This document shows positions 3,248 to 33,572 of a stretch of DNA of 64,000 nt, in pieces. Location of the stretch: the IMG/VR virus record IMGVR_UViG_3300009784_000001, positions 295,944 through 359,943 of that record, one strand, 5' to 3'. The DNA comes from a virus (Duplodnaviria > Heunggongvirae > Uroviricota > Caudoviricetes). Under the pieces are notes generated by a model that worked only from the letters and a program-made list of their open reading frames with translations, had not been told where the DNA came from and made no database searches. The position numbers and the translations under genes were made by a program. Position 1 is the first letter of the stretch. The number at the start of each line of letters is the position of its first letter.

Positions 3248-3340
3248 AACTTTTTAATTTGAAATATTATTATTTTAATATAAATATGTGTATATTTGGA
3301 AAGTGATTTATTTAATAAAGAAATATTTTTTTCTATAAAT

Positions 3341-4017: not shown

Positions 4018-4216
4018 ACTTTCTACTATTTATTGAAATAAATATTGATTAATTATATTTTTTTAACATTTTATACTTTGAAATTAAAAAATAAATTTAT
4101 ATCTTTGCAGTGTAATTCAAATGAATTAGTGTTGAAGTGATAACTGAGTAAGAACATGATACTTCAAATAAATGTAGTGAGAGATGTACAGCTTTATTCA
4201 TTTTTTTAGATAAGGT

Positions 4217-4338
4217 TCCCCTGTAGCTCAGTTGGTTAGAGTACTTAAAATGAAGTTTTCTGGGTAGGAAATGTTCAGCAATATCAATCAAAATCGCTGT
4301 TAACGAAGGGGTCGGCAGTTCGAGTCTGTCCAGGGGTT
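4217..4338 (+). ncRNA. tRNA-Asn(GTT)-like RNA interrupted by a 48-nt insert (4246-4293)
   Basis: CCCCTG/CAGGGG acceptor stem, D arm, GGCAG-TTCGAGT-CTGTC T arm; removing the insert restores CTTCG-CTGTTAA-CGAAG. Confidence 0.75.
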
Positions 4339-4668: not shown

Positions 4669-4744
4669 TGGAACTTAGCTCAGCTTGATTTAGAGCATCT
4701 GTTTTACAAGCAGAGGGCCGTGGGTTTAAATCCCCCAGTTCCAA
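4669..4744 (+). tRNA. tRNA-Val(TAC)
   Basis: TGGAACT/AGTTCCA acceptor; TCTGT-TTTACAA-GCAGA. Confidence 0.85.
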
Positions 4745-4753
4745 CAATTAAAT

Positions 4754-4825
4754 CGGGGGATAGAGCAGTGGTAGCTCACCAGGCTCATAACCTGGAGGTC
4801 GAAGGTTCGATCCCTTCTCCCCCAA
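4754..4825 (+). tRNA. tRNA-Met(CAT), C1:A72 mismatch (initiator-like)
   Basis: CCAGG-CTCATAA-CCTGG; canonical T arm. Confidence 0.9.
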
Positions 4826-4829
4826 CAAT

Positions 4830-4958
4830 AGGAAAGGTACAGCAAATTGAATTAAAATTCTATTTACAATTTTACTATGAGGAAGAGAGCTTTCATCTAA
4901 AATAGGTGGAAAACAACTCTCAAAGAAATGAGTACTTCTCTAAAAACTCTCTTTCCTG
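4830..4958 (+). ncRNA. CAGCA-motif small RNA (long variant)
   Basis: AGGAAAG-GTACAGCAA...CTTTCCT-G with internal hairpin TTTCATCTA/TAGGTGGAAA. Confidence 0.6.
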
Positions 4959-5110
4959 ATATCATAAAATAAATCTTTACATCAAGGTGTACATAAATCT
5001 GTATAGTGGTACAAATGAGGGGCAAAGGAGAAGAATTTGCGTAGTCCGCTTGGAGTATCGGGTAGCTATGGTTGGGAAAGGTAAAGATTTATTTTTAATT
5101 TTTATATAAT

Positions 5111-5545
5111 ATGTTATATTCAATATTATTAACATTAGGATTATTAATTTTAGCTCATTTTATTGGAGATTGGAGTAAATTTGTTCCATTTCATCAAAAA
5201 GTAGTTAATGCAAAAGTTAATAAAACCAATACATCTGGAAATTGGATATTTTTACATTCAAGTATTGTATCTCTGTATAAAATATTTGCAATTTTAATTT
5301 CATCTTGGATTATTCCAATAGGAAATATGCCAGGTTTTTTGAATACAATATGGTTTTATATTATTCTTGTAGTAATATTTTTTGGAGAACTAATAACACA
5401 TTTTGTATTTGATATTTCTAAATGGTTTCTAAATAATAAATATAATCTGAATCCATCAAAAGATATTTATTGGACTGTTGTTGGTATTGACCAAATGCTA
5501 CATTATTTAGTAATGTTAGGAATGTTATATTTATTATATTGTTAA
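5111..5545 (+). CDS. DUF3307-like membrane protein
   Basis: AHFIGD, HFVFD, DQMLH motifs; hydrophobic helices. Confidence 0.7.
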   Translation: MLYSILLTLGLLILAHFIGDWSKFVPFHQKVVNAKVNKTNTSGNWIFLHSSIVSLYKIFAILISSWIIPIGNMPGFLNTIWFYIILVVIFFGELITHFVFDISKWFLNNKYNLNPSKDIYWTVVGIDQMLHYLVMLGMLYLLYC

Positions 5546-5553
5546 TTTTATAT

Positions 5554-5639
5554 GGCTATGTGGCGTAATTGGGAGCCGCAGGGGACTTAAAATCCCCTCT
5601 CCTGTAAAGGAGGTACAGGTTCAAGTCCTGTCATAGCTA
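5554..5639 (+). tRNA. tRNA-Leu(TAA)
   Basis: GGGGA-CTTAAAA-TCCCC; long variable arm. Confidence 0.9.
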
Positions 5640-5640
5640 C

Positions 5641-5761
5641 GATGAGAATTAGCTCAGTTGGTAGAGCAAAGGTATTATAAAAAGTTTCTTGAATAAGAAA
5701 TGTTCAGCAATATTTAAAAATGGGAACTTTATGTCAGCAGTTCGAGCCTGCTATTCTCATC
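5641..5761 (+). ncRNA. tRNA-like RNA whose anticodon loop is replaced by a ~55-nt CAGCA-motif insert
   Basis: GATGAGAAT/ATTCTCATC acceptor stem, canonical D arm, AGCAG-TTCGAGC-CTGCT T arm; insert shares GAAATGTTCAGCAATAT with 4217..4338. Confidence 0.75.
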
Positions 5762-5766
5762 CACAT

Positions 5767-5840
5767 TTTCTGGTAGTTCAATTGAATAGAACCTTCGGCT
5801 TCTACCCGAAAAGTTGGGAGTTTGAATCTCCCCCAGAAAG
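5767..5840 (+). tRNA. tRNA-Arg(TCT)
   Basis: TTCGG-CTTCTAC-CCGAA; TTTCTGG/CCAGAAA. Confidence 0.85.
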
Positions 5841-5857
5841 CAAAATAAATAGAAAAA

Positions 5858-6088
5858 ATGAGTAGTTGTATTAATAGATTAGATGATGAATTAGATGACC
5901 AGCAATGGAAAGAAATGGTATTAAAATGGAATGGTTTCAAATTTAAAGTAATTGATGAATTAAATGAAGTTAAAATTAAGAATAAATATGATACCAAAGA
6001 AGTTGAAGAATGGAAATTTTTATTTAATAATAAATCCAAAATATTAGCGAATAGAGAATTGATTAACTTATTAAAAAATTGGGAATGA
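5858..6088 (+). CDS. hypothetical protein
   Basis: 76 aa ORF. Confidence 0.55.
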   Translation: MSSCINRLDDELDDQQWKEMVLKWNGFKFKVIDELNEVKIKNKYDTKEVEEWKFLFNNKSKILANRELINLLKNWE

Positions 6089-6297
6089 ATATAAAGGTAA
6101 AAGAATTAATAAGTAAATTACAATTATTTAATCCAGAAGCCGAAGTTGATATTCTATTTAATAATCAACCTTATCCTTTGGAAATATATGGTTGGAATTG
6201 TGGTGGAGATAATAATTATTCTTCAACTGAATCTAAACAAAAAGCTATTTCAGTATCATTAGGTGGGATTGGGTTAAATGATAGTGAAAGAATGTAA

Positions 6298-6633
6298 ATG
6301 AAAAGTAAATTTGAATGTAGAGATAAAGTATCATATAATACATTTGAAGAAGCAAATAAAGTATTATCAGTATGGGATAAAAAGAAAAATAATAGTGAAC
6401 AATATGCTTATTCTTGTAAAGAATGTGGAAAGATACATATTACCAGTAGAAAGAAACATCTAAATAAAGTAAAACCAATTAAATATAAGGAAATTGGATT
6501 TACAAATGAGGATAGAAAAAAATGGGGTGGTAGTCGTTCAGTTAAAGAGCAAAAAGAACTTGTAGAAGTATTGTATAAAGGAAGAGAAAATAAAAGAGTT
6601 ACTTTTGGAGATTTATTAAAAAAAGAATATTAA
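6298..6633 (+). CDS. hypothetical protein with zinc finger (YSCKECGKIH)
   Basis: C..K..Y and YxCxxCGxxH pattern. Confidence 0.6.
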   Translation: MKSKFECRDKVSYNTFEEANKVLSVWDKKKNNSEQYAYSCKECGKIHITSRKKHLNKVKPIKYKEIGFTNEDRKKWGGSRSVKEQKELVEVLYKGRENKRVTFGDLLKKEY

Positions 6634-6705
6634 GTTTTTTTAATACAAAATATTTTGGTAACTCAAAAATAATTCTTATCTTTGTAGTGTTATTTGAAAT
6701 TATAA

Positions 6706-6893
6706 CGAGAGGTAGCTTAATGGCAGAGCGCAGTCGGAATGTAAAATTGCAATTTAATGTTCTTAAACAAGACTGAATGGTGTGCTGTGAAAGTTTGAAA
6801 AAAGTGAATACAAACTGAATGGGGTTGCAAACCTTGCAAGTTATGATGCTTGAAGTAGAATGAGTAATTGAGGTTCAATTCCCACCCTCTTGA
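6706..6893 (+). ncRNA. large tRNA-like RNA (~190 nt)
   Basis: CGAGAGG/CCTCTTG acceptor-like stem, D arm TAGCTTAATGGCAGAGC, GGTTCAATTCC T loop, long central insert; own promoter at 6654-6684. Confidence 0.6.
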
Positions 6894-6912
6894 CAAAAAA
6901 AATTAAATTGAT

Positions 6913-7179
6913 ATGAAAACATTAAGAGAAAGACAAATTGGTGAAAGATTTAAATATAGAAAAAATATAGTTGAAGTCAAATCTGTTATTTATAACAAAT
7001 GTTTTTATTGTCAATTTAGAAATCAATCTAAATGGATTGTAATTCTAAATGGTTGTTATCAAGAAAAAAATATGTTTGATTCTTGTTCAAAGAAACATAA
7101 TTGTTCAAGATATACCAGAAAGGATAAAAAAGATGTTTATTTCAAACTAGTCAAAAGACTTTATTTAGAAAGAAAATGA
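6913..7179 (+). CDS. hypothetical Cys-rich protein
   Basis: CFYCQF...CSRYTRKDKKDVYF. Confidence 0.6.
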   Translation: MKTLRERQIGERFKYRKNIVEVKSVIYNKCFYCQFRNQSKWIVILNGCYQEKNMFDSCSKKHNCSRYTRKDKKDVYFKLVKRLYLERK

Positions 7180-7739
7180 TAGGTTCAAATAACACTGATA
7201 AGTTTAAGATATTCCAAATAAGATGGGCTGAAAAGTTGGGTTATAACGATAATCCATATTTAATAAGGTGGACATTTATATTTTTTGGATATTCAATGAG
7301 AATACATCATTGGATTAAATCAGATGATAATAGATATTTTCATGATCATTCAAGTGATTTGTTAAGCATTGTATTAAAAGGAAAATATACAAATGTTAAA
7401 CCTCTTATGTGGAAGAAAAATTTACCTCCAACTCATTTATTTGAAGTTGAATTACCACCAGAATCTTCAATAAAGAGAAAGTTTATTTCAAATACTGTAG
7501 AGTATCCAGTTGAAGGTATTTTTAATTCTTGGAAAAATTTCTTCAATATGAAGAAATCAATATGGTTTTCAAAAGCAACTGAACAACATTACTTGAGTAT
7601 TCCAAAAAAAGGTGCATGGACATTGTTATTTGAAGGAAAAGCATATCATAAGTGGGGATTTTATGTAAATCAACATAAATGGAGACCATTAAGATATTTC
7701 TCAAAGTTTGGTATAATACAAACAGAAAATTATCAATAA
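7176..7739 (+). CDS. hypothetical protein, cupin-like HDH motif
   Basis: IHHW..SDD.RYFHDH...WGF. Confidence 0.55.
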   Translation: MIGSNNTDKFKIFQIRWAEKLGYNDNPYLIRWTFIFFGYSMRIHHWIKSDDNRYFHDHSSDLLSIVLKGKYTNVKPLMWKKNLPPTHLFEVELPPESSIKRKFISNTVEYPVEGIFNSWKNFFNMKKSIWFSKATEQHYLSIPKKGAWTLLFEGKAYHKWGFYVNQHKWRPLRYFSKFGIIQTENYQ

Positions 7740-8081
7740 TTTTTAACATAAAAAATTTGGTCATTAAAAATAAAATTTGTATCTTTGCATTATAAATTAT
7801 GTTTTATTGATAGATTCAGGTACTGAATATTGGCACTGTAAAATATAGTTTAGAGTAATAGGCAGTAAGTCATATATCTATGAGTAGAGGGTAACGTTTG
7901 AAATTAGTATATACTCCTTTGAAAAAGTGCAATGACCTATTATTTTTTATTAAATATTGATAATTTTTTAAATAATAGTATATTTATATTAAAAAACTTA
8001 TAAATGGGTATTGAACCATAAATAAAAAGTAAAAACAAAAAAAGCAATGGGAACAGATGCTTAAAAAAAGAAAAAAAAGAA

Positions 8082-8213
8082 ATGAGAGAATTTAGTAAAC
8101 ATATTAATAATTTTGTTGAGGTTAGTTATAAACCCAATAGTAATTGTAATTCAAATGAAAAACCATTTGAAGATGATAATAATTTGCTAAAAGGATTTTG
8201 TGTATATATGTAA
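8082..8213 (+). CDS. leader peptide 1 (43 aa, MREFSKHINNFVEVSYKPNSNCNSNEKPFEDDNNLLKGFCVYM)
   Basis: manual translation; 14 of codons 17-34 are K/P/N/E/D; precedes a terminator and the Glu/Asn/Asp/Pro/Pro/Lys tRNAs. Confidence 0.8.
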   Translation: MREFSKHINNFVEVSYKPNSNCNSNEKPFEDDNNLLKGFCVYM

Positions 8214-8234
8214 CATTTACTCAAATATACGTTC

Positions 8235-8284
8235 CACAAACCCTGATAGCAAAATTAAAAAAGTTATCAGGGTTTTGTGTTTTT
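8235..8284 (+). terminator. attenuator terminator 1
   Basis: CACAAACCCTGATAGC / GTTATCAGGGTTTTGTG plus T run, ending 7 nt before tRNA-Glu. Confidence 0.85.
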
Positions 8285-8291
8285 AATATAT

Positions 8292-8362
8292 GGCGCATTA
8301 GTTTAGTGGTAGAACAGGCGGTTTTCAGCCGAAGGAGAGGGTTTCGATTACCCTATGCGCTA
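8292..8362 (+). tRNA. tRNA-Glu(TTC)
   Basis: CGG-TTTTCAG-CCG (short anticodon stem); GGCGCAT/ATGCGCT. Confidence 0.8.
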
Positions 8363-8369
8363 CAAATAT

Positions 8370-8442
8370 GTACCTGTGGCAGAGTGGTTTATGCACTTGA
8401 CTGTTAATCAAGACTACGAAGGTTCGATCCCTTCTGGGTACG
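8370..8442 (+). tRNA. tRNA-Asn(GTT)
   Basis: CTTGA-CTGTTAA-TCAAG. Confidence 0.9.
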
Positions 8443-8450
8443 CAAAAATA

Positions 8451-8522
8451 GAGAGTATAGCATAATCTGGTAAGTGTGCCTTCCAAGTGGGAAGGAGATG
8501 TGGTTCAAATCCAATACTTTCT
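8451..8522 (+). ncRNA. atypical tRNA-like gene, anticodon undetermined
   Basis: cloverleaf with CCTTC-CAAGTGG-GAAGG (no U33); weak T stem. Confidence 0.6.
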
Positions 8523-8530
8523 GCAAAAAT

Positions 8531-8602
8531 AGTCTATTGGTCCAGCGGTTAGGATGCCAGATTGTCAATCTGGTGGCGAGGGTTCAACTCCCTTATAGAC
8601 TG
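8531..8602 (+). tRNA. tRNA-Asp(GTC)
   Basis: CCAGA-TTGTCAA-TCTGG; G73. Confidence 0.9.
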
Positions 8603-8608
8603 CTATTT

Positions 8609-8681
8609 CTGGGTGTAATTCAGTAGGAAGAATGCTTGGTTTGGGACCAAGATGTCGGGAGTTCGAGCCTCTCTACTCAGA
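8609..8681 (+). tRNA. tRNA-Pro(TGG)
   Basis: CTTGG-TTTGGGA-CCAAG; C1:G72. Confidence 0.9.
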
Positions 8682-8688
8682 CAAAATT

Positions 8689-8764
8689 CGGATAGTAGGG
8701 AAGCTCGGTCGTTCCCGCCTGCCCTGGACGCAGGAGATCATAGGTTCAAATCCTGTTTATCCGA
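8689..8764 (+). tRNA. tRNA-Pro(TGG), variant loop (C33, A37)
   Basis: CCTGC-CCTGGAC-GCAGG; C1:G72. Confidence 0.8.
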
Positions 8765-8901
8765 CTATAATTAAAAAAGTTAAAGGGACTTTGAAAAGAA
8801 TTATAAGTGAAAATAATATGAGTAATAAATTAAAAATAAAACGAAAATGTAGCTGACCTCACAGTTAATATGGGCTGTGAGGTTGGGAATAAGGATATTA
8901 C

Positions 8902-8974
8902 TCCCTCATAGCTCAATGGTTTAGAGCTTCTGTCTTTTAAACAGAAGAACCAGGTCCGATTCCTGGTGGGGGAA
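8902..8974 (+). tRNA. tRNA-Lys(TTT)
   Basis: TCTGT-CTTTTAA-ACAGA. Confidence 0.9.
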
Positions 8975-9210
8975 CTATAAAAATAAAAAAAAATGTTTTG
9001 GGATAACAAAAATAAATGTAAGAAGTATTGTATAGGTTGTAAATTTGCAAGTGAATTTAATAATAATTTTTATTGTGTTAATGAACTTGGTGAATATATT
9101 GTTGCAACAAAAAATCAAGTTTTAGTATCATTGGGATATACAGCTTTACATATATGTAGAGGTTTATTAATAAAGAAAAATTGCCCATTTTTTGAAAAAG
9201 ATAGAAAATT

Positions 9211-9459
9211 ATGAAAGAAATTAGTATTAAAGATGTAATTGATAATAGTAAAAGAGCTAAATTAACTCATGCTATTGCAGGGAGATTGTATTATAGGGTA
9301 GATGATATAGAAAGAAATACTACATATCAATTTTGTGTAGATATGAATGATAAAGAAGATGTTGGTTCAACTACATTTATTGTAGATGAAAAAGCTATTC
9401 TTTTAATGAGATATATTAGAAAATCAAAAGATTCTGGTGATTTAATTCAAATTAAATAG
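9211..9459 (+). CDS. hypothetical protein
   Basis: 82 aa ORF. Confidence 0.65.
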   Translation: MKEISIKDVIDNSKRAKLTHAIAGRLYYRVDDIERNTTYQFCVDMNDKEDVGSTTFIVDEKAILLMRYIRKSKDSGDLIQIK

Positions 9460-9786
9460 CATAATGAGTTTTATTTATGAAATAAAAAATTTAGAGAAAA
9501 TAAAAGAAGAAGGTAGTATTTACATTCAATGCCCATGTTGCCAAGAAAGTTTTGATTATTATCTAGATAAATATGAATTAGATATTTTGAATAAAGAAGA
9601 GGACATTTATTGTAAGTGTATAGAATGTGGTAATTCTTTCTATCTTTCTTTGTAGATTATCAAAAAGTGATAAAAATCATTTTATGTATTGTAAAAGATG
9701 AAAAGAATAAATTTGGTATATTCAATAATAATTTGTACTTTTGCGATATAATTATCTATTTATAGATACAACAAAAAAGTATAAAA

Positions 9787-10122
9787 ATGAAAAAAAGAAT
9801 TATTATTTTATTATCATTATTTTTCATAATGAACATAAGTCAAGCAGCTATTTATAAAACAAAAAGTGAAAGTGATGTAATTGAGAATAGTACAGGTTTA
9901 TTTGGAGAAAAAAAAGTAGAGAAAATTGAAAATACAGAAGATAATTATGGTGGATTATTCAGAGCATCAGATCCAGGTGGAAGACCAGGGAATGGTGATG
10001 GAATTGGTCAGCAAGCACCATTAGGTGATGGATTAAAAATATTACTTATACTTTGTTTTTTCTTTCTTCTTTATGAATTTTCTACAAACAAAAAAATTAA
10101 CATAAAAAATTTGGATAATTAA
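9787..10122 (+). CDS. secreted protein with signal peptide and C-terminal PLGDG-TM-basic tail (PID-CTERM-like)
   Basis: MKKRIIILLSLFF..SQA signal; APLGDGLKILLILCFFFLLY tail. Confidence 0.55.
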   Translation: MKKRIIILLSLFFIMNISQAAIYKTKSESDVIENSTGLFGEKKVEKIENTEDNYGGLFRASDPGGRPGNGDGIGQQAPLGDGLKILLILCFFFLLYEFSTNKKINIKNLDN

Positions 10123-10178
10123 AAAATAAATTGTAATTTTGTAGAGTAATAAGATATTTATAAGATATAAAAATAGAT

Positions 10179-10256
10179 CGTGGTGTGGAGGAGTCTGGCT
10201 TTCCTCATCTGGCTCATAACCAGAATGTCACATGGGTTCAAATCCCATCACCGCAA
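10179..10256 (+). tRNA. tRNA-Met(CAT), C1:A72 mismatch (initiator-like)
   Basis: TCTGG-CTCATAA-CCAGA. Confidence 0.9.
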
Positions 10257-10261
10257 CAAAT

Positions 10262-10315
10262 AGAAAACATACAGCATTTTTTCAATTTTCAATGGGAGAA
10301 AAAAAGTGTTTTCTG
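10262..10315 (+). ncRNA. CAGCA-motif small RNA
   Basis: AGAAAACA-TACAGCA...TTTTC-AATGGGA-GAAAA...TGTTTTCT-G. Confidence 0.7.
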
Positions 10316-10324
10316 AAAAAAATA

Positions 10325-10406
10325 AGGAAAGATACAGCAATGTTAAATGGTTAAAAGAAAATTCTGTAAAAATTTTTTGAAAAGGTTCAAATCCTATTCT
10401 TTCCTG
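10325..10406 (+). ncRNA. CAGCA-motif RNA enclosing a degenerate tRNA-Tyr-like body
   Basis: AGGAAAGA-TACAGCAA..AATGGTT..AAATT-CTGTAAA-AATTT..AGG-TTCAAAT-CCT..TCTTTCCT-G. Confidence 0.7.
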
Positions 10407-10442
10407 TAAATTTGAAAAGTTAAATTAAAAAAAATAGAAAAA

Positions 10443-10553
10443 ATGAAACAAATTAGTAGTACATATTGTCTTGGAAGTTCATCAGCGATTAGTTTTGCTG
10501 GTACAACATCCTTTTGTACTTATCATTTTTATGATAATTTTGTTTCAAGTTAA
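10443..10553 (+). CDS. leader peptide 2 (36 aa, MKQISSTYCLGSSSAISFAGTTSFCTYHFYDNFVSS)
   Basis: 25 of codons 4-30 are S/Y/F/L/C/T/A/I/H, the amino acids of the downstream tRNAs. Confidence 0.85.
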   Translation: MKQISSTYCLGSSSAISFAGTTSFCTYHFYDNFVSS

Positions 10554-10582
10554 AAAAAGAATTACCTTAACCTGGCAAGGAT

Positions 10583-10627
10583 AAACCTGAAACAAATCTA
10601 TAAAAAAGAAAAGTTTCAGGTTTTTTT
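10583..10627 (+). terminator. attenuator terminator 2
   Basis: AAACCTGAAAC / GTTTCAGGTTT plus T run, just before tRNA-Ser. Confidence 0.85.
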
Positions 10628-10636
10628 AATTTATAT

Positions 10637-10721
10637 GGAAAGTAAACCTATAAGGTGTAGGAACCGCCTGCTAAGCGAGTTGTACAATTAAATGTATGTG
10701 AATCGTGTTCACTGCTCTCCG
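10637..10721 (+). tRNA. tRNA-Ser(GCT)
   Basis: CGC-CTGCTAA-GCG; long variable arm; G73. Confidence 0.8.
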
Positions 10722-10762
10722 CAAAAGTTCTTTGAAATTGTTGGTTAATTATAAATTATTAT

Positions 10763-10845
10763 GGATTAGTTGGGTAGTGGCAATCCCAAGACACTGTAAC
10801 TGTCTCGCCTTCGGGCTTTCGCTGGTTCGAGTCCAGCCTAATCCA
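10763..10845 (+). tRNA. tRNA-Tyr(GTA)
   Basis: AGACA-CTGTAAC-TGTCT; variable arm GCC-TTCG-GGC. Confidence 0.9.
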
Positions 10846-10886
10846 CATAAAAATATTTTTCTTAATAACTATACTTTTTTAGTTCG

Positions 10887-11858
10887 ATGCGATATTTATA
10901 TATAAATGTAAATATTATGATAAAGGAACGAGAAGAATTAATTATTAAAATAATAAAAGAGAGTAATAGTATTTCAGAGGTTTGTAAAAAGTTAAATATA
11001 TCTGTTACTAATGGTAATTATATAACAATAAAAAAAATAATAAAAAACAATAATTTAGATATATCTCATTTTAAAAGAGTTTCACAAAATTCTAATAAAA
11101 AGCGATATACGTTACAAGAAATTATGGTTGAAAATTCATCATACACCAATGTAAATAAATTAAAGAAAAGATTAATTAAAGAAGGGATTAAGGAAAATAA
11201 ATGTGAAATATGTGGAATAAGTAAATGGAATGGAGAACAAATTTCTTTACAATTGCATCATAAAAATGGTATCACAAGTGATAATAGAATAGAAAATTTA
11301 CAAGTACTTTGTCCCAATTGTCATTCTCAAACACATAACTATGGTGGGAAAAATATAGATAATAAAATAAGAGAAGATAGATTTTGCAGAATATGTGAGA
11401 AAAAGTTAAACGATACACAAAAAAAGTATTGTTCAATCAATTGCTATAATAAAAGTATTGATGATAATATTCCAACTAAAAACAAAATCTTATCTTATAT
11501 AAAAAATTATACAACACTTGTAGAATTATGTAAAAAAGAAAAAATTGATAGAGGGACATTTAGAAATTGGTGTAATAAAAGACAATGTATAGATGATGTA
11601 AATTTTTTGTTGAAAAAAAATTTTGAAATAAAAATTTTAAATATTGAAGTTAAGAATGATTTATATGAAAAAAGATGTGAATTAATAAATAAATTTAAAA
11701 AATTTGGGTCATTCTTACAAGTAGGTAAATATTATGGAGTATCCGATAATATGATAAGAAAAAGATGTAAAAAAATTGGTTTACCTGTTCATACAAAAGA
11801 AATGATAAAATTAATAAATTCGGAAGAATGTCAGAGTGCTTTATTGTACAACTCTTGA
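10887..11858 (+). CDS. HNH homing endonuclease (start may be 10917); 3' end overlaps tRNA-Ser
   Basis: CEICG...LQLHHKNG..DNRIENLQVLCPNCHSQT. Confidence 0.85.
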   Translation: MRYLYINVNIMIKEREELIIKIIKESNSISEVCKKLNISVTNGNYITIKKIIKNNNLDISHFKRVSQNSNKKRYTLQEIMVENSSYTNVNKLKKRLIKEGIKENKCEICGISKWNGEQISLQLHHKNGITSDNRIENLQVLCPNCHSQTHNYGGKNIDNKIREDRFCRICEKKLNDTQKKYCSINCYNKSIDDNIPTKNKILSYIKNYTTLVELCKKEKIDRGTFRNWCNKRQCIDDVNFLLKKNFEIKILNIEVKNDLYEKRCELINKFKKFGSFLQVGKYYGVSDNMIRKRCKKIGLPVHTKEMIKLINSEECQSALLYNS

Positions 11859-11906
11859 AAAGTTGTGAACTTTCGAGTTCCGTAGGTTGGAATCCTACTT
11901 CTTCCG
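11822..11906 (+). tRNA. tRNA-Ser(TGA)
   Basis: CAACT-CTTGAAA-AGTTG; long variable arm. Confidence 0.85.
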
Positions 11907-11917
11907 CAAGATAATAA

Positions 11918-11990
11918 GGGATAGTAACATAGAAGTTTATGTGCTGGTCTGAAAAACCAGAAATGCTTGAGGCGGTATCAGCCTATCCCA
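11918..11990 (+). tRNA. tRNA-Phe(GAA)
   Basis: CTGGT-CTGAAAA-ACCAG; atypical T loop. Confidence 0.8.
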
Positions 11991-12000
11991 CAAATTAAAT

Positions 12001-12086
12001 GCTTCAATGGGGGAATTGCTAGACCCGCTTGATTTAGGCTCAAGTTTCTGGGAACAGAAGTGTAGGTTGGATTCCTACTTGAAGTA
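12001..12086 (+). tRNA. tRNA-Leu(TAG)
   Basis: CTTGA-TTTAGGC-TCAAG; long variable arm. Confidence 0.85.
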
Positions 12087-12092
12087 CAATAT

Positions 12093-12164
12093 GTTCAGTT
12101 GCCAGAGTGATAATGGGGTAGACTGCAAATCTATTTTTCGTTGGTTTGAATCCAACACTGAATT
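12093..12164 (+). tRNA. tRNA-Cys(GCA)
   Basis: GTAGA-CTGCAAA-TCTAT; U73. Confidence 0.85.
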
Positions 12165-12176
12165 CAAAAAATAAAT

Positions 12177-12247
12177 GCTGTGTTAGTATAAGAGTATTAC
12201 ATTGGCTTTGTAACCCAAAAATGGGGATGCGATTTCCTCACACAGCT
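12177..12247 (+). tRNA. tRNA-Thr(TGT)
   Basis: GCTGTGT/ACACAGC; loop TTTGTAA. Confidence 0.8.
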
Positions 12248-12256
12248 CTAAATTAA

Positions 12257-12328
12257 GGGCTTATCATATAATAGCTATTATGCCACCCCTGCAAGGTGGT
12301 TATTGGAGTGCAATTCTCCATAGGTCCA
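12257..12328 (+). tRNA. tRNA-Ala(TGC)
   Basis: CCACC-CCTGCAA-GGTGG; G3:U70. Confidence 0.85.
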
Positions 12329-12407
12329 CTTATTTAGCATTTATTAACTTGAATAATTTTGATATTAGATAATATTTTCTTATCTTTGTATCATTAAAAT
12401 AAATGGT

Positions 12408-13022
12408 ATGAAAAAGATAGAATTAGTTTATAATAATTTAGATATTAATAATTTACCAGGTGAAATATGGGTAGATGCTTATGATTTTGATGGTTATTAT
12501 GAAGTATCCAATATGGGGAGGATAAAAACTTGTGAAAGAGAAGTCAGTAATGGAGTTGGGACAAGAATAGTAATTAGTAAAATTAGGAAACAGGTTTTAG
12601 GTAAAGATGATAGATTAACTTGTCCCTTTACTATAAATAATGAAAGTATATCTATAAATGTTTCAAGGTTAATCTTTCAATCTTTTAACCCCACTAAGAT
12701 TTTAGATAATTTAGTGGTTTCACATAGAAATAGATGTAAATGTGATAATAGATTGAATAATTTAAAAGTGGAAACATTACAAAACAATCATTTTGATAAT
12801 GTTCATAAGTATAATTATGGCTTAAAAGAACATTTGTTAAAACTGAATAAAATTAAACATGAAAAATTTGTCAATACAATAAAAAGCAAAGTTTGTAATA
12901 AATGTGGAATAGAAAAAGATATAATAGAATTTGTATATAAAAGAGAAGGAAAAAGAGATGAAAATAGAAATATATGTAAAATGTGTAGAAATAAACGTGA
13001 AAGAAATAGAATTAAAAAATGA
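12408..13022 (+). CDS. NUMOD4/HNH homing endonuclease
   Basis: EIW...GYYEVSNMGRIK (NUMOD4); VSHRNRCKCDNRLNNL. Confidence 0.8.
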   Translation: MKKIELVYNNLDINNLPGEIWVDAYDFDGYYEVSNMGRIKTCEREVSNGVGTRIVISKIRKQVLGKDDRLTCPFTINNESISINVSRLIFQSFNPTKILDNLVVSHRNRCKCDNRLNNLKVETLQNNHFDNVHKYNYGLKEHLLKLNKIKHEKFVNTIKSKVCNKCGIEKDIIEFVYKREGKRDENRNICKMCRNKRERNRIKK

Positions 13023-13441
13023 GTTATAAAGATTTTTTTCAAAAACCAGAGTTTGATTTGGATGAAGTAGAAGAAAAAAGAGTAAATGCTTTGAAACCAG
13101 ATGAAAATGGTGATTTAATGGAAAATGGTGATTATATTTTTCAGGATAGAGCAATTCATAATCAACAAGGTAATACAATTCAGCGTTCTTTTACAACTGT
13201 AAAGGGAGTTAGAGTAATGGAAGATACTTACATACCCTGGTCATGCTTTCAACCAATGAGGATGACTTTTGTGGTAGATTTGACATTGCCTGATGATACA
13301 TTACCAACAACTGAAACAAGTTGGATGCAAAATTGGTATGAGCCTGAAGGATTTGCTCATCCTGCATTTGTAAATTTTGAAGATGTTGTTGAATTTATAA
13401 TTAAATGGAGAAAAAGTAACCCTAAAGTGGTTAATAATTAA
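13019..13441 (+). CDS. hypothetical protein
   Basis: 140 aa ORF. Confidence 0.65.
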   Translation: MSYKDFFQKPEFDLDEVEEKRVNALKPDENGDLMENGDYIFQDRAIHNQQGNTIQRSFTTVKGVRVMEDTYIPWSCFQPMRMTFVVDLTLPDDTLPTTETSWMQNWYEPEGFAHPAFVNFEDVVEFIIKWRKSNPKVVNN

Positions 13442-13449
13442 ATAAAAAT

Positions 13450-13522
13450 GTTCAGTTCTTCTAATGGTTTAGGAAGCAAGACTGATATTCTTGTAATATA
13501 AGTTCGATTCTTATACTGAACA
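13450..13522 (+). tRNA. tRNA-Ile(GAT)
   Basis: CAAGA-CTGATAT-TCTTG. Confidence 0.85.
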
Positions 13523-13524
13523 CT

Positions 13525-13602
13525 GTGTGGGTAGCTAATATTGGTTAAGGCACTAGATTGTGGCTCTAGGTTTTTATGGGGGTTCGATTCCCCTCTCACA
13601 CC
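13525..13602 (+). tRNA. tRNA-His(GTG)
   Basis: CTAGA-TTGTGGC-TCTAG; C73. Confidence 0.85.
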
Positions 13603-13667
13603 AAAAATAAGAAAGTTTTGTTATTTAAAAAATTATTCATATCTTTGTATTGTAAATTAAATAAGAT

Positions 13668-14174
13668 ATGAAAAAAATCAGAAAATTTGTATTTGAAACA
13701 AACAGTTCAAGTTCTCATTCTATTACATTAGGTGATTTAGATTCATTTAGAAAAGATAGATATGGATTAAAATCTTGTATAGATGAAAATAACAATCTTG
13801 TATTAAAAGGTGGTGAATTTGGTTGGTATTTAGAAGATGATGAGGGTGCTGAAACAAAAGTAAATTATGTTGCAGTAGCTTTAACTTATTATTATGAAGC
13901 TGCGAAAGACAATGAAGAAAATTATTATGGTTTTACATTAGATGAAATCAATAATATTATTGAATTATTTAAAGAAGTTTTGAGAGAAGAAACAGATGCA
14001 GAAGTTGTTTTCAATTTTAAAGTAGGTTGGGAAGATTCTTACATTGATCATCAATCTATTGATATGATTGCAGATGAAATTAAAGGTAAAAATGATTCAG
14101 AATTGAAAGAATTTTTCTATAATTTCATTTTTAATGAAAATTCAATATTAATAATTGATAATGATAATCATTAA
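13668..14174 (+). CDS. FETNSSS-motif protein 1
   Basis: MKKIRKFVFETNSSSSHS; YIDHQS. Confidence 0.75.
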   Translation: MKKIRKFVFETNSSSSHSITLGDLDSFRKDRYGLKSCIDENNNLVLKGGEFGWYLEDDEGAETKVNYVAVALTYYYEAAKDNEENYYGFTLDEINNIIELFKEVLREETDAEVVFNFKVGWEDSYIDHQSIDMIADEIKGKNDSELKEFFYNFIFNENSILIIDNDNH

Positions 14175-14373
14175 TTATGAATGAAGATAGTGGAGTTAGT
14201 TGTGGATGTGGTTGTTTTTCTTTTAGTATAGGTTGGGGGACTATTATTGCTGTAATATTAAGTTGAATGAAATGGCATTCAATTGGATGGGTAATTATTC
14301 ATGGGTTATTAGGATGGTTATATGTAATATATTATATTGCAAAATATGTGTTATTAAATTAAAAATATATAAT

Positions 14374-14814
14374 ATGAAAAAAATTAGAATTAGTGTTTTT
14401 GAAACGAATAGTTCCAGCACTCATAGTCTTACAATTGTATCAAAAGAAGATTTTGAGAAGTGGAAAAAAGGTGAATTTATTTTTGACAGAAGTAATGATG
14501 AATTAGTTCCTGTTAAAGAGAAGCAATATACAGAAGAAGATTATTTAAATTATCTTAAAGATAAAGCCAAAAAAGTTGCAAATGGATATATTTTTAGAGA
14601 TGTTTATTATAAAAATCTAGATGAAATATTATCATTAAATCTTATTTCTAATGATGAAATGAATGAATATTTAGAAGATGAAGGATATGATTATGATTTT
14701 CAAACTTATAAAGATTGGGAAAATGATGAATATCTTGAAACATTTCAATATTCACATACTACTCCAAGTGGAGATGAAATTGTGGTTTTTGGTAGATATG
14801 GTTATGATGGATAA
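14374..14814 (+). CDS. FETNSSS-motif protein 2 (start corrected from 14233)
   Basis: MKKIRISVFETNSSSTHS matches the N-terminus of the preceding gene. Confidence 0.75.
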   Translation: MKKIRISVFETNSSSTHSLTIVSKEDFEKWKKGEFIFDRSNDELVPVKEKQYTEEDYLNYLKDKAKKVANGYIFRDVYYKNLDEILSLNLISNDEMNEYLEDEGYDYDFQTYKDWENDEYLETFQYSHTTPSGDEIVVFGRYGYDG

Positions 14815-14962
14815 TATATGATTTCGATAATACAACAAAAAAATATAATAAAAGAATTTATTGATTATCTACCTTTTTCTGTTCTAACAAATGAACATTC
14901 TAGGTATAAAAAGGAAATAAGTTTATATGATTATCTTGAAGAATATATTAAAAAATTAAGAG

Positions 14963-15904
14963 ATGGAGATATTGAAATCATACAAAAATGGTAATGTTGA
15001 AATTACATTATATGATAATGGAACGAGGGTAATGGAATATGATGAAACTAAACCATTATTATTTGATTATCCTACATCTATGGATATTAAAATTACTAAT
15101 TATTGTGAAGGCGGAAAGATAACCAAGAATGGTGATTTTAAATTGTGCCAATTTTGTCATGAGGAATCAAATAAAGATGGAAAACATGCTAATTTAATTG
15201 AATTAAGTAATATTTTATTTGATATTCCAGAAGGAGTTGAAATTGCACTAGGTGGAGGTAATCCATTATCACATCCAAATTTAGTTGCTTTTTTATTAAG
15301 ATGTAAAAAACAAGGTTTAATTCCTAATTTAACAGTTAATAAAAATCATCTTGTTTTTTATTATGATTTATTAAAAAATTTAATAGATAATAAATTAATT
15401 TATGGATTAGGCATATCAATTCCTACTTCTGTATGTGAATGGAATGAAAAAGAGTTATTTTTTGTAAATTATAAACATTCAGTTGCTCATTTAATTATAG
15501 GATTGCATTCTACTAAAATAATAAATATTTTAAGAAAGATTGGTTTCAAAAAATTTTTATTATTGGGCTATAAAGAATTTGGAAGAGGTATAAAATATTA
15601 TAATAGTCATTCTAATAAAATAAATGAAAATATTAAAGAATGGGAAAACAATATATTAAATATTCTAACTACTGCTAATGTAATTTCTTTTGATAATTTA
15701 TCTATTAGTCAACTTAATTTACAATCTAAATTGCCTAAGAAATTGTGGGATAAATTTTATCAAGGAGATGATTTTAGTTCAACTTTGTATTTGGATGCTG
15801 TAACTAAACAGTTTGCTCCTACTTCAAGAAGCAATAAAAATGAAAGGGTAAATTGGAAAGATATAAGTTTATTAGATTATTTCAGAGATAATAGAAGAAA
15901 GTAA
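14963..15904 (+). CDS. radical SAM protein
   Basis: DIKITNYC-x13-CQFCHE; EIALGGGNPL. Confidence 0.8.
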   Translation: MEILKSYKNGNVEITLYDNGTRVMEYDETKPLLFDYPTSMDIKITNYCEGGKITKNGDFKLCQFCHEESNKDGKHANLIELSNILFDIPEGVEIALGGGNPLSHPNLVAFLLRCKKQGLIPNLTVNKNHLVFYYDLLKNLIDNKLIYGLGISIPTSVCEWNEKELFFVNYKHSVAHLIIGLHSTKIINILRKIGFKKFLLLGYKEFGRGIKYYNSHSNKINENIKEWENNILNILTTANVISFDNLSISQLNLQSKLPKKLWDKFYQGDDFSSTLYLDAVTKQFAPTSRSNKNERVNWKDISLLDYFRDNRRK

Positions 15905-15931
15905 AAGTTAGATATTTATTATAAAAAAGTA

Positions 15932-16786
15932 ATGAAGAATTTAGATGAAATAAAGTTTTTATTTGAAAGAAAAGAAGAAGAGACTTTTCAAGAATATAGT
16001 GATAGAAAGGAAAAAGAACGAAGTGTATCAAGTAGTTGTAATCATAAGGGGGGGGGGATTCTTAATGAATCTGTTTCAAAAAAAAGTACTTCTGAAAGAC
16101 CAAATTTTATTTCTGAAATAAAAGGTTCAACAACTAATACATGGTCTTTACATAGACTTGATGAGATGACTGTACAAAGATTATTAGGAAAACATTCTAA
16201 TAATGGTTATATAATTATATCAGCAAGTAGAGGAGTGGAAAATGAATGGAATGAACAACAGAAACAAGAACAAAGAAGATTGAATAATGAAAATTATCAA
16301 AAATTATTAGCTTCAATAAAAAATAGTGGCTTTTCTTTTATTCCTGTATATGGTGGATTTGTTGAAAATTTAGGAGAAGAAGATGAAAGACAGGTTTATG
16401 AAAAATCATTTATTGTTTTGAATTTTAATAGAAAAGGAAATGAAATGGATTTTAATGAACTTTATCAAAAAGGTTTAGAATGGACTGAAGAATTTGATCA
16501 AGATTCATTTTTATCAAAGGCTCCTGATTCAACACCAGAATATGTTGATAAAGGAGGAAATGTAACAATGAAGTTTGGTGGGGATATAAAAGTAAATGAT
16601 TTAACTCAACAATATTTCACAGATTTCGTTAAGTCAAAACAATTAGGTCAAGAAACAAATACAAAGGGTGATTCAATGAGTAGAGAACACAGGATTACTT
16701 TTGAAGGAGTATTTATAAATCCTGAACCTGCTACTTTGAGTGAAAGAGTTGTAAGGGATTATTTAAATGAATTATTTTTGAAATAA
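15932..16786 (+). CDS. hypothetical phage protein
   Basis: IISASR...GGFVE...EKSF...FDQDS; TATTTAT motif upstream. Confidence 0.7.
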   Translation: MKNLDEIKFLFERKEEETFQEYSDRKEKERSVSSSCNHKGGGILNESVSKKSTSERPNFISEIKGSTTNTWSLHRLDEMTVQRLLGKHSNNGYIIISASRGVENEWNEQQKQEQRRLNNENYQKLLASIKNSGFSFIPVYGGFVENLGEEDERQVYEKSFIVLNFNRKGNEMDFNELYQKGLEWTEEFDQDSFLSKAPDSTPEYVDKGGNVTMKFGGDIKVNDLTQQYFTDFVKSKQLGQETNTKGDSMSREHRITFEGVFINPEPATLSERVVRDYLNELFLK

Positions 16787-16807
16787 TGTGATATTTATAT
16801 AAATAAA

Positions 16808-16900
16808 ATGAAAAAAAATACAAACATATTATTAGTTGGGCAACAAGGTTGGCAACAATTTGGACAAGGCTGTGGCAATGTTCCTGATAATGGTATGTAA
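16808..16900 (+). CDS. leader peptide 3 (30 aa, MKKNTNILLVGQQGWQQFGQGCGNVPDNGM)
   Basis: 11 of codons 11-23 are G/Q/W; the downstream tRNAs are Gln, Gly, Trp. Confidence 0.85.
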   Translation: MKKNTNILLVGQQGWQQFGQGCGNVPDNGM

Positions 16901-16934
16901 GTATATAAGGATAACCTTCGCAAATGGTGGCTCT

Positions 16935-16971
16935 GGCTTACATTACTATTAAAAGTATGTAAGCCTTTTTT
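16935..16971 (+). terminator. attenuator terminator 3
   Basis: GGCTTACAT / ATGTAAGCC plus TTTTTT, 7 nt before tRNA-Gln. Confidence 0.85.
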
Positions 16972-16978
16972 AATTTAT

Positions 16979-17050
16979 AGATTAGTGGTATAATGGTTAT
17001 TACACATCGCTTTGAACGATGGAATTCCTGTTCAATTCAGGACTAATCTA
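16979..17050 (+). tRNA. tRNA-Gln(TTG)
   Basis: CATCG-CTTTGAA-CGATG. Confidence 0.85.
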
Positions 17051-17164
17051 CATCATATCAATGGCAATAGATATGATAATAGAATAGAAAATTTACAAAT
17101 ACTTTGTCCTAATTGTCATTCTCAAACTGATAGTTATGCAGGAAAAAGTAGTAGAAAAAAATAA
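17051..17164 (+). pseudogene. HNH endonuclease remnant
   Basis: HHINGNRYDNRIENLQILCPNCHSQTDSYAGK with no start codon; close to the core of 10887..11858. Confidence 0.8.
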
Positions 17165-17167
17165 AAT

Positions 17168-17239
17168 GCGTCATTCGTATAGTGCTTATTATGCGACTCT
17201 TCCAAAGTCAGGACATCGGTTGGATTCCGATATGGCGCA
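17168..17239 (+). tRNA. tRNA-Gly(TCC)
   Basis: GACT-CTTCCAA-AGTC; GCG 5' end. Confidence 0.85.
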
Positions 17240-17249
17240 CAAAATATAT

Positions 17250-17320
17250 ACGTGTTTGGTGTAATGGTAGCATAACTCCCTCCAAATGAGTTGGTTAGGG
17301 TTCGAGTCCTTAAATACGTG
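17250..17320 (+). tRNA. tRNA-Trp(CCA)
   Basis: loop CTCCAAA; G73. Confidence 0.85.
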
Positions 17321-17449
17321 CTTACTTTGAAATGTTAAATAATCTAAAATTTTTATATTATCTAATTTATTAACATTTTCTATTTGTATAATAGAAAAAA
17401 TTATCTTATCTTTGTTCCATAATTAATAACAATTTAAATTTTTAATAAT

Positions 17450-32957: not shown

Positions 32958-33572
32958 ATGAGTAGATATATTAAGGAAGAATTGGAGAATTTAATTTTAA
33001 TAGAAAAAAAAAGTTATGAAGAAATTGGTAGATTATATGGAGTTAGTGGGGTAGCAATAAAAAAAGCTGCATATAGAAGAGGAATAGATCTACCTATAAG
33101 GAATAGGCGAACAAAAAATGCTAATGAACATTTTGATAGAGATGTATCATTAAAAAATTATGGAAATTGTAAAAATTGCGGAAAACAATTTATTAAATAT
33201 AAACAAAAGAGAAACGTTTATTGTAGTATTAAATGCCAAAACGAATATATAGGCAAAGAATATATTAAACAATGGAAAAATGGAAATATCAGTGGAAGAG
33301 TTGGTGTTGGCGTGTCTGGGCATATAAAAACTTATTTATTTAAAAAAAATAATAATAAATGTGAAAAATGTGGTTGGGATAAAATTCATCCATTAACTAA
33401 TAAAGTACCATTACAAGTTCATCATATAGATGGTGATTGTACAAATTGTAAAGAAGATAATTTAGAATTGTTATGCCCCAATTGTCATTGTTTAACAGAT
33501 AATTATGGAAATTTGAATAAAAATTCAACAAGGGGTTGTTCCCCAAGATATTTAAAGAAAAATAAAGAATGA
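32958..33572 (+). CDS. HNH homing endonuclease
   Basis: CEKCG..LQVHHIDGD..N...NLELLCPNCH. Confidence 0.85.
   Translation: MSRYIKEELENLILIEKKSYEEIGRLYGVSGVAIKKAAYRRGIDLPIRNRRTKNANEHFDRDVSLKNYGNCKNCGKQFIKYKQKRNVYCSIKCQNEYIGKEYIKQWKNGNISGRVGVGVSGHIKTYLFKKNNNKCEKCGWDKIHPLTNKVPLQVHHIDGDCTNCKEDNLELLCPNCHCLTDNYGNLNKNSTRGCSPRYLKKNKE

Follow-up and report, generated by a model that had tools for sequence, protein, structure and literature searches.

A putative ribosome-mediated attenuator in front of the tRNA-Gln, tRNA-Gly and tRNA-Trp genes of a jumbo phage from termite guts

The reason for tRNA genes in phages is a long-standing question, and the main proposals are compensation for codon bias and replacement of host tRNAs that have been destroyed. 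The locus described here raises a related one: what does a short open reading frame crowded with Gln, Gly and Trp codons do in front of tRNA genes for the same three amino acids? We analyzed the final 64 kb of a virus record of 359,943 bp (the window, 64,000 nucleotides, to which all positions refer unless stated otherwise). An earlier note on this DNA had read the arrangement as an attenuator, and this reading was supported by the tests applied to the sequence (codon cluster, helices, geometry, an ortholog, a third strain and sister units). We consider it likely that a ribosome-mediated transcription attenuator gates the three phage tRNA genes. The phage would then probably make these tRNAs only when ribosomes decode Gln, Gly and Trp codons slowly.

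The record has direct terminal repeats and was rated complete at about 360 kb, and the phage DNA was obtained from termite-gut metagenomes; no RNA dataset was listed among those carrying it, which has no bearing on expression. The genome encodes a gp23-type capsid protein together with two factors of the sigma-70 family, and a gene for the RNA polymerase beta subunit was not found in it. The phage is therefore T4-like, a jumbo phage dependent on the host polymerase. The capsid protein (genome C1 152649-154583; L022 325-2259) is 644 aa long, with a long insertion separating its two matched parts. A Shine-Dalgarno-like word was found before only 6 of 174 long phage genes, starts were A-rich, and TATCTTTG was almost wholly intergenic (74 genome copies, 7 within ORFs). 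This word fits the consensus TAnnTTTG, which we take to be a Bacteroidota-type promoter element, and together these traits indicate that the host is probably a member of the Bacteroidota. About 25 tRNA genes were located within 4669-17321 using ARAGORN and Rfam. The phage genome also encodes an RNA ligase, and no Glu/Gln-tRNA synthetase gene was found in it. Two further sequences (4217-4338 and 5643-5759) are tRNA-shaped with insertions of 30-45 nt in the anticodon arm, both carrying GTTCAGCAATAT, and related words ending in ACAGCA occur at about 4389, 4850, 10263 and 10330.

The features of the unit and of its two sister units are collected in Table 1.

Table 1. Features of the Gln/Gly/Trp leader unit, its surroundings and the two sister units (window positions).
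Feature	Position	Strand	Remarks
Promoter-like motif ATATTTATAT	16791..16800	+	17 nt upstream of leader ATG; same in L002
Leader ORF	16808..16900	+	30 codons; A-rich start context lacking a Shine-Dalgarno sequence, as in other phage genes
Region 1, protector strand	16818..16845	+	Predicted to pair with region 2 when leader is untranslated
Control codons 11-23	16838..16876	+	5 Gly, 5 Gln and 1 Trp in 13
Region 2, antiterminator strand	16888..16902	+	Spans stop codon
Variable spacer	16903..16934	+	Contains non-conserved AAGGATAACCT motif (16907-16917)
Intrinsic terminator	16935..16971	+	Region 3 (16935-16951, 5' arm and loop), region 4, U6
tRNA-Gln(TTG)	16979..17051	+	ARAGORN; Rfam 60.7 bits
HNH endonuclease gene remnant	17048..17164	+	38 codons, without start codon; Pfam HNH E 6e-5
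tRNA-Gly(TCC)	17168..17240	+	Rfam 46.5 bits; ARAGORN at relaxed threshold, missed at default
tRNA-Trp(CCA)	17250..17321	+	ARAGORN, Rfam
TATCTTTG, presumed Bacteroidota-type promoter element of next gene (DUF932)	17407..17414	+	
Sister unit 1	8082..8285	+	43-codon leader; terminator -20.1, antiterminator -15.5; before tRNA-Glu/Asn/Asp/Pro/Pro/Lys
Sister unit 2	10443..10628	+	36-codon leader; terminator -12.8, antiterminator -12.5; tRNA-Ser/Tyr/Phe/Leu/Cys/Thr/Ala downstream

The motif upstream of the leader, ATATTTATAT, is a probable phage promoter element, as judged from its distribution: only 8 of its 46 genome copies lie within long same-strand ORFs and 21 lie no more than 60 nt from an ATG. 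The earlier note had counted 11 Gly, Gln or Trp codons among 13 consecutive codons. This stretch, codons 11-23, was the single occurrence among 313,525 stop-free 13-codon stretches drawn from the whole genome in six frames, and stretches with at least 10 such codons were limited to it and its three overlapping neighbors. Gln, Gly or Trp made up 12 of 29 residues of the complete leader, where 3.0 were expected (P = 1.5e-5). The same note had observed that the Gln codons are all CAA, matching the TTG anticodon; the count held for all five, but it is uninformative as an anticodon match because CAA makes up 90% of the genome's Gln codons and is therefore expected. A codon-level match was rejected on these grounds and because the leader of the orthologous locus (L002, described below) has one CAG. 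The Gly codons (GGG, GGT, GGA, GGC, GGC and GGT) use all four codons of the Gly box, indicating that leader and tRNAs match by amino acid and not by anticodon.

The pairing across the stop codon with the 5' arm and loop of the terminator that had been proposed for this leader was real, with region 2 pairing to 16936-16951 through 15 pairs interrupted by a single bulge (duplex -15.1 kcal/mol). Only 1 of 545 control ORF ends paired as well with the terminator arm. For 22 terminators behind ordinary genes upstream pairing averaged -3.4 and reached -7.0 at best, and for the three tRNA leaders of this genome it was -15.5, -15.1 and -10.9. The terminator (16935-16965 followed by U6 at 16966-16971) folded at -13.3 kcal/mol (z -4.8) and lies 13 nt 5' of tRNA-Gln; a standard terminator scan with a loop limit of 8 nt missed it because of its loop. 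A protector helix, absent from the earlier note, was also found. Region 1 with region 2 gave a predicted leader fold of -22.2 kcal/mol (z -2.1), and -26.0 kcal/mol (z -2.6) in L002, both of modest significance, and this hairpin could possibly also serve as a pause hairpin. The predicted layout of protector (1:2), antiterminator (2:3) and terminator (3:4) is thus complete.

The geometry of the leader suits a ribosome-controlled choice between these helices. The distance from the start of the last control codon to region 2 is 14 nt. In folds masked for a ribosome, with 12 nt assumed to be covered from the A-site, the antiterminator was predicted at -15.9 or better with the A-site on codons 12-23, fell to -9.1 at codon 26 and was gone at the stop codon; at codon 26 an 8-pair remainder of the antiterminator was still predicted in the window. 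The three predicted states held in the window, L002 and the third strain. Across the phage 27 of 36 terminators are separated from a stop codon by more than 12 nt, a weak hint of transcription-translation coupling.

All three tRNA genes that had been placed behind the leader (Gln, Gly and Trp) were confirmed. Because the presumed host-type promoter element at 17407 opens the next gene, these three tRNAs are probably all that the unit contains. Between tRNA-Gln and tRNA-Gly we found an HNH remnant that the earlier note did not contain; it is joined to the 3' terminus of tRNA-Gln, shares 76% identity over 33 aa with the HNH gene at 10887-11858 and is absent from L002. This arrangement suggests that the tRNA-Gln gene was brought in or replaced by a homing endonuclease. 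Further HNH genes adjoin tRNA-Tyr (10887) and tRNA-Arg (about 33300-33570). The gene directly 5' of the leader (15932-16786) has relatives that mostly carry Pfam PF23780 (S-AdoMet lyase), for which an anti-restriction function is possible; the window's own protein gave no PF23780 match.

The orthologous locus L002 was found on a JGI contig from a termite gut. Its leader is identical at 86 of 95 nt, and the changes alter 0 of 12 Gln, Gly and Trp residues and 5 of 18 other residues, with two synonymous changes among the control codons. Every terminator pair is kept (C-G to U-A, U-A to U-G and one pair added), as are 15 of 15 antiterminator pairs, including an A-U to G-C double change that joins codon 28 and the terminator loop. 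The spacer has been replaced by one unrelated to that of the window. The tRNAs behind the L002 leader serve the same three amino acids, with tRNA-Gln 65% and tRNA-Trp 49% alike and a tRNA-Gly of anticodon GCC. On the L002 evidence, tRNA genes appear to turn over behind a stable leader. At 3272-3322 L002 carries a version of this window tRNA-Gly(TCC) with an internal deletion, beside the intact and unrelated tRNA-Gly(GCC).

A third strain was recovered as one 224-nt contig from two runs at depth 3. Its sequence was reconstructed from a table of differences that omits 3 of 16, near the contig ends, and we therefore treat it as supporting and not decisive. No change was listed within 16835-16907, and the spacer had 12 substitutions and 3 indels. 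The T16947C change converts an antiterminator G-U to G-C, strengthening that helix, and breaks an inner terminator pair. Searches for further orthologs using the upstream protein, a radical SAM protein, DUF932 and four DNA patterns returned L002 only; the other matches were non-syntenic or due to chance and had no Gln/Gly/Trp leader before a tRNA, and in named phage genomes matches were limited to the HNH remnant or single tRNAs. As only two relatives carry the unit, the compensatory evidence amounts to one double change per helix. The locus combines a very sharp three-amino-acid signature with compensatory changes in both competing helices.

Two sister units precede other tRNA blocks of the same genome. 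In unit 2, 25 of 35 leader codons match its block (P = 1.3e-5), and in unit 1 the match to Glu, Asn, Asp, Pro and Lys is weak (P = 0.047). Each of the three leaders was enriched for the set of its own block and for neither of the others. In the block of unit 2, tRNA-Ser(GCT) at 10636-10724 (identified by eye) and tRNA-Phe(GAA) at 11918-11990 (Rfam 42.1 bits) were missed by default ARAGORN. A low-scoring tRNA called Thr(AGT) at 8450-8524 (32.9 bits) has an odd anticodon loop, and the lack of a Thr codon in the unit 1 leader fits a degenerate gene there. The 111-aa ORF at 9787-10122 has a signal-peptide-like start, a late hydrophobic stretch and no PHROG match. No fourth unit was found for the Val, Met, Leu and Arg tRNAs, where a 17-codon ORF at 4157 is accompanied by a weak hairpin only.

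The spacers of unit 2 and of the Gln/Gly/Trp unit had been noted to contain AAGGATAA(A)CCT, possibly as a shared pause signal. Both copies are present, at 10577 and 16907, and are the only two in the genome, but they do not form a conserved pause signal. In unit 2 the motif overlaps the terminator arm rather than following the stop codon, and AAGGATAACCT is destroyed in both relatives, indicating that the motif is not needed. We therefore rejected this candidate.

The open frame, codon cluster, tRNA identities, complementarity, spacing and conservation were read from the sequence and the three folds were computed. From these we infer a promoter, translation of the leader, coupling of transcription to translation, switching in vivo and a physiological trigger, which would combine as follows. 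Host RNA polymerase would initiate just 5' of the leader. If the leader were left untranslated, region 1 would hold region 2 and the terminator would form, and a ribosome reaching the stop codon would cover region 2 with the same outcome. When charged tRNA-Gln, tRNA-Gly or tRNA-Trp is short, a ribosome would stall on codons 11-23, covering region 1 and freeing region 2, which would capture the 5' arm and loop of the terminator before the 3' arm is synthesized, so that the three tRNAs are transcribed. The tRNA products would relieve the stall in the case of a tRNA shortage, and a negative feedback loop would result.

Nine distant jumbo phages, chosen via their capsid protein (57-69% identity), were scanned for similar arrangements. 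Leader-terminator units matched to other tRNA sets were found in two of the nine, G007 and G005. In G007 (L113 3542-3690) a 32-codon leader and terminator precede a Trp/Arg/Ala/Val/Gly/Thr/Glu/Asp/Tyr/Gln/Cys tRNA array, and K, S, P and H are missing from leader and array alike; 25 of 31 codons matched, with a P value (0.0025) that is post hoc because the leader was picked by eye. The G005 leader (unit at L108 2762-2990) matched at 33 of 40 codons (P 0.018). Units in G002 (L104) and G011 (L118) likewise head tRNA arrays, as does that of G005, and these two have a conserved spacer in common. No leader was found at the tRNA arrays of G003, G004, G006, G008 and G009, five of the nine scanned. Three related jumbo phages carry tRNAs with anticodon CTA (L107, L110, L114 and L106), which are candidates for amber suppression or recoding.

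The G002 and G011 leaders sample nearly all amino acids, which makes the enrichment test inapplicable to them and lends itself to another explanation, that the same switch gauges translation speed or the supply of ribosomes in general, for example late in infection, with the matched codons only tuning it. In the window, any stall at codons 3-23 would cover region 1 and spare region 2, as such a gauge would require. Three block-matched units in one genome would, however, be needless for a general gauge, and the substitutions in the L002 leader spare every Gln, Gly and Trp residue while altering others. We consider this explanation unlikely.

Gene calls in the window phage and in L002 both include the leader, which is conserved and could instead encode a small secreted or regulatory peptide followed by a leaky terminator, the tRNAs being transcribed by constitutive read-through or with a phage antitermination protein. 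No Pfam family was found for the peptide. At equilibrium the terminator was the favored and most stable fold of the finished L002 transcript (P 0.86-0.99), consistent with this idea, and folding was mixed in the window; for the attenuator these equilibrium folds mean that switching must be kinetic, taking place during transcription. The ordinary gene ends showed no comparable pairing with their terminators. Here the changes in the terminator loop keep their pairing with the leader, and a peptide gene leaves the match between residues and tRNAs in three units unexplained. We regard it as very unlikely.

The helices are most directly backed by the compensatory changes, and a translation-independent RNA switch governed by polymerase speed or by a protein, or a processing signal directing cleavage of the tRNA precursor, would account for them with the ORF being incidental. 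This would not explain why the open frame, the start context and the Gln, Gly and Trp residues are kept through two synonymous control-codon changes, or why the codon cluster ends at a ribosome-footprint distance from region 2, and we give it only a slim chance. The weakest explanation, a chance ORF beside a functionless relic of a tandem duplication of the terminator 3' arm, draws on a 9-nt word common to regions 2 and 4, since duplication would also give the resemblance of region 2 to that arm, but it is largely refuted by the unique codon cluster, by constraint next to a fast-changing spacer, by pairing that reaches into the terminator loop and by three parallel units, and we hold it to be extremely improbable.

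If the attenuator operates as proposed, the trigger of use to the phage is probably that host tRNA has been lost or is overloaded, because extra tRNA would cure a shortage of tRNA and not one of an amino acid. Shortage of tRNA is accordingly the more likely useful trigger as compared to amino-acid starvation. Tentatively, the three units could form an inducible counter-defense in which the leaders report host tRNAs that have been cut or depleted, for example by anticodon nucleases, and switch on the matching replacement block. It is conceivable in the same sense that host decoding capacity is monitored amino acid by amino acid. We hold the counter-defense reading to be possible and attenuation itself to be likely. 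A sensor that switches tRNA genes on only when the codons they serve are decoded slowly would, if true, mean that the phage treats its tRNA genes as on-demand replacements.

Leader-peptide attenuators control amino-acid operons, as in trpL, hisL, pheL and leuL and in the multivalent thrL, ilvL (ilvGMEDA) and ivbL. The phage unit resembles trpL/ilvL-type leaders in its short ORF, clustered control codons, three helices and a region 2 placed over the ORF end, and as in thrL, ilvL and ivbL one leader would sense several amino acids. Unlike the trpL/ilvL type, it would regulate phage tRNA genes and not biosynthetic enzymes, its output would restore tRNA and not an amino acid, and the sensed set (Gln, Gly and Trp) belongs to no common pathway and mirrors the block of genes behind the leader. 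No match to an Rfam leader family was found, and its targets are tRNAs rather than genes for amino-acid synthesis, transport or synthetases, which places the unit outside the described attenuator families. The pheM attenuator, which controls E. coli pheST, is similar in that leader-peptide attenuation acts on a part of the translation apparatus when charged tRNA is low; pheM however serves a synthetase, one amino acid and a chromosomal locus, and the phage unit would serve tRNA genes themselves, three amino acids and a virus. The Bacteroid-trp leader (RF01692) is a trp attenuator and is comparable as a leader RNA in the probable host phylum.

The same leader is listed as a Bacteroidetes cis-regulatory motif in a published report (PMC2864571). 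Its covariance model gave 0 matches in the phage genome and matched in the control genome of Bacteroides thetaiotaomicron. T-box riboswitches act independently of translation, through direct contact with uncharged tRNA (PMC7778990). The phage unit would resemble them in that tRNA charging governs the choice between terminator and antiterminator, but neither the gathering score nor a relaxed limit of E up to 5 yielded a match to the Rfam T-box model, which covers stem I with its specifier loop and the T-box antiterminator bulge. In the accessible text of a report on phage T5, tRNA-Lys, tRNA-Thr and tRNA-Asn counter the PARIS effector AriB, their expression level matters for rescue, and AriB did not cleave tRNA-Gln(UUG) (PMC12409363). 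The likeness lies in phage tRNAs replacing depleted host tRNAs, and unlike here, the accessible text describes no sensor regulating the phage tRNA genes (PMC12409363). In a search of the open literature, with most subscription journals outside its reach, no account of attenuated phage tRNA genes was found, and the application of trp-operon logic to tRNA genes that the sequence suggests appears to have no published description there. The unit would also offer a compact test system, a 170-nt cassette whose read-through should report a shortage of Gln, Gly or Trp tRNA, with the sister cassettes as specificity controls. As compared to the trpL and ilvL leaders, it would carry leader-peptide attenuation beyond enzyme operons, to tRNA genes and into viruses.
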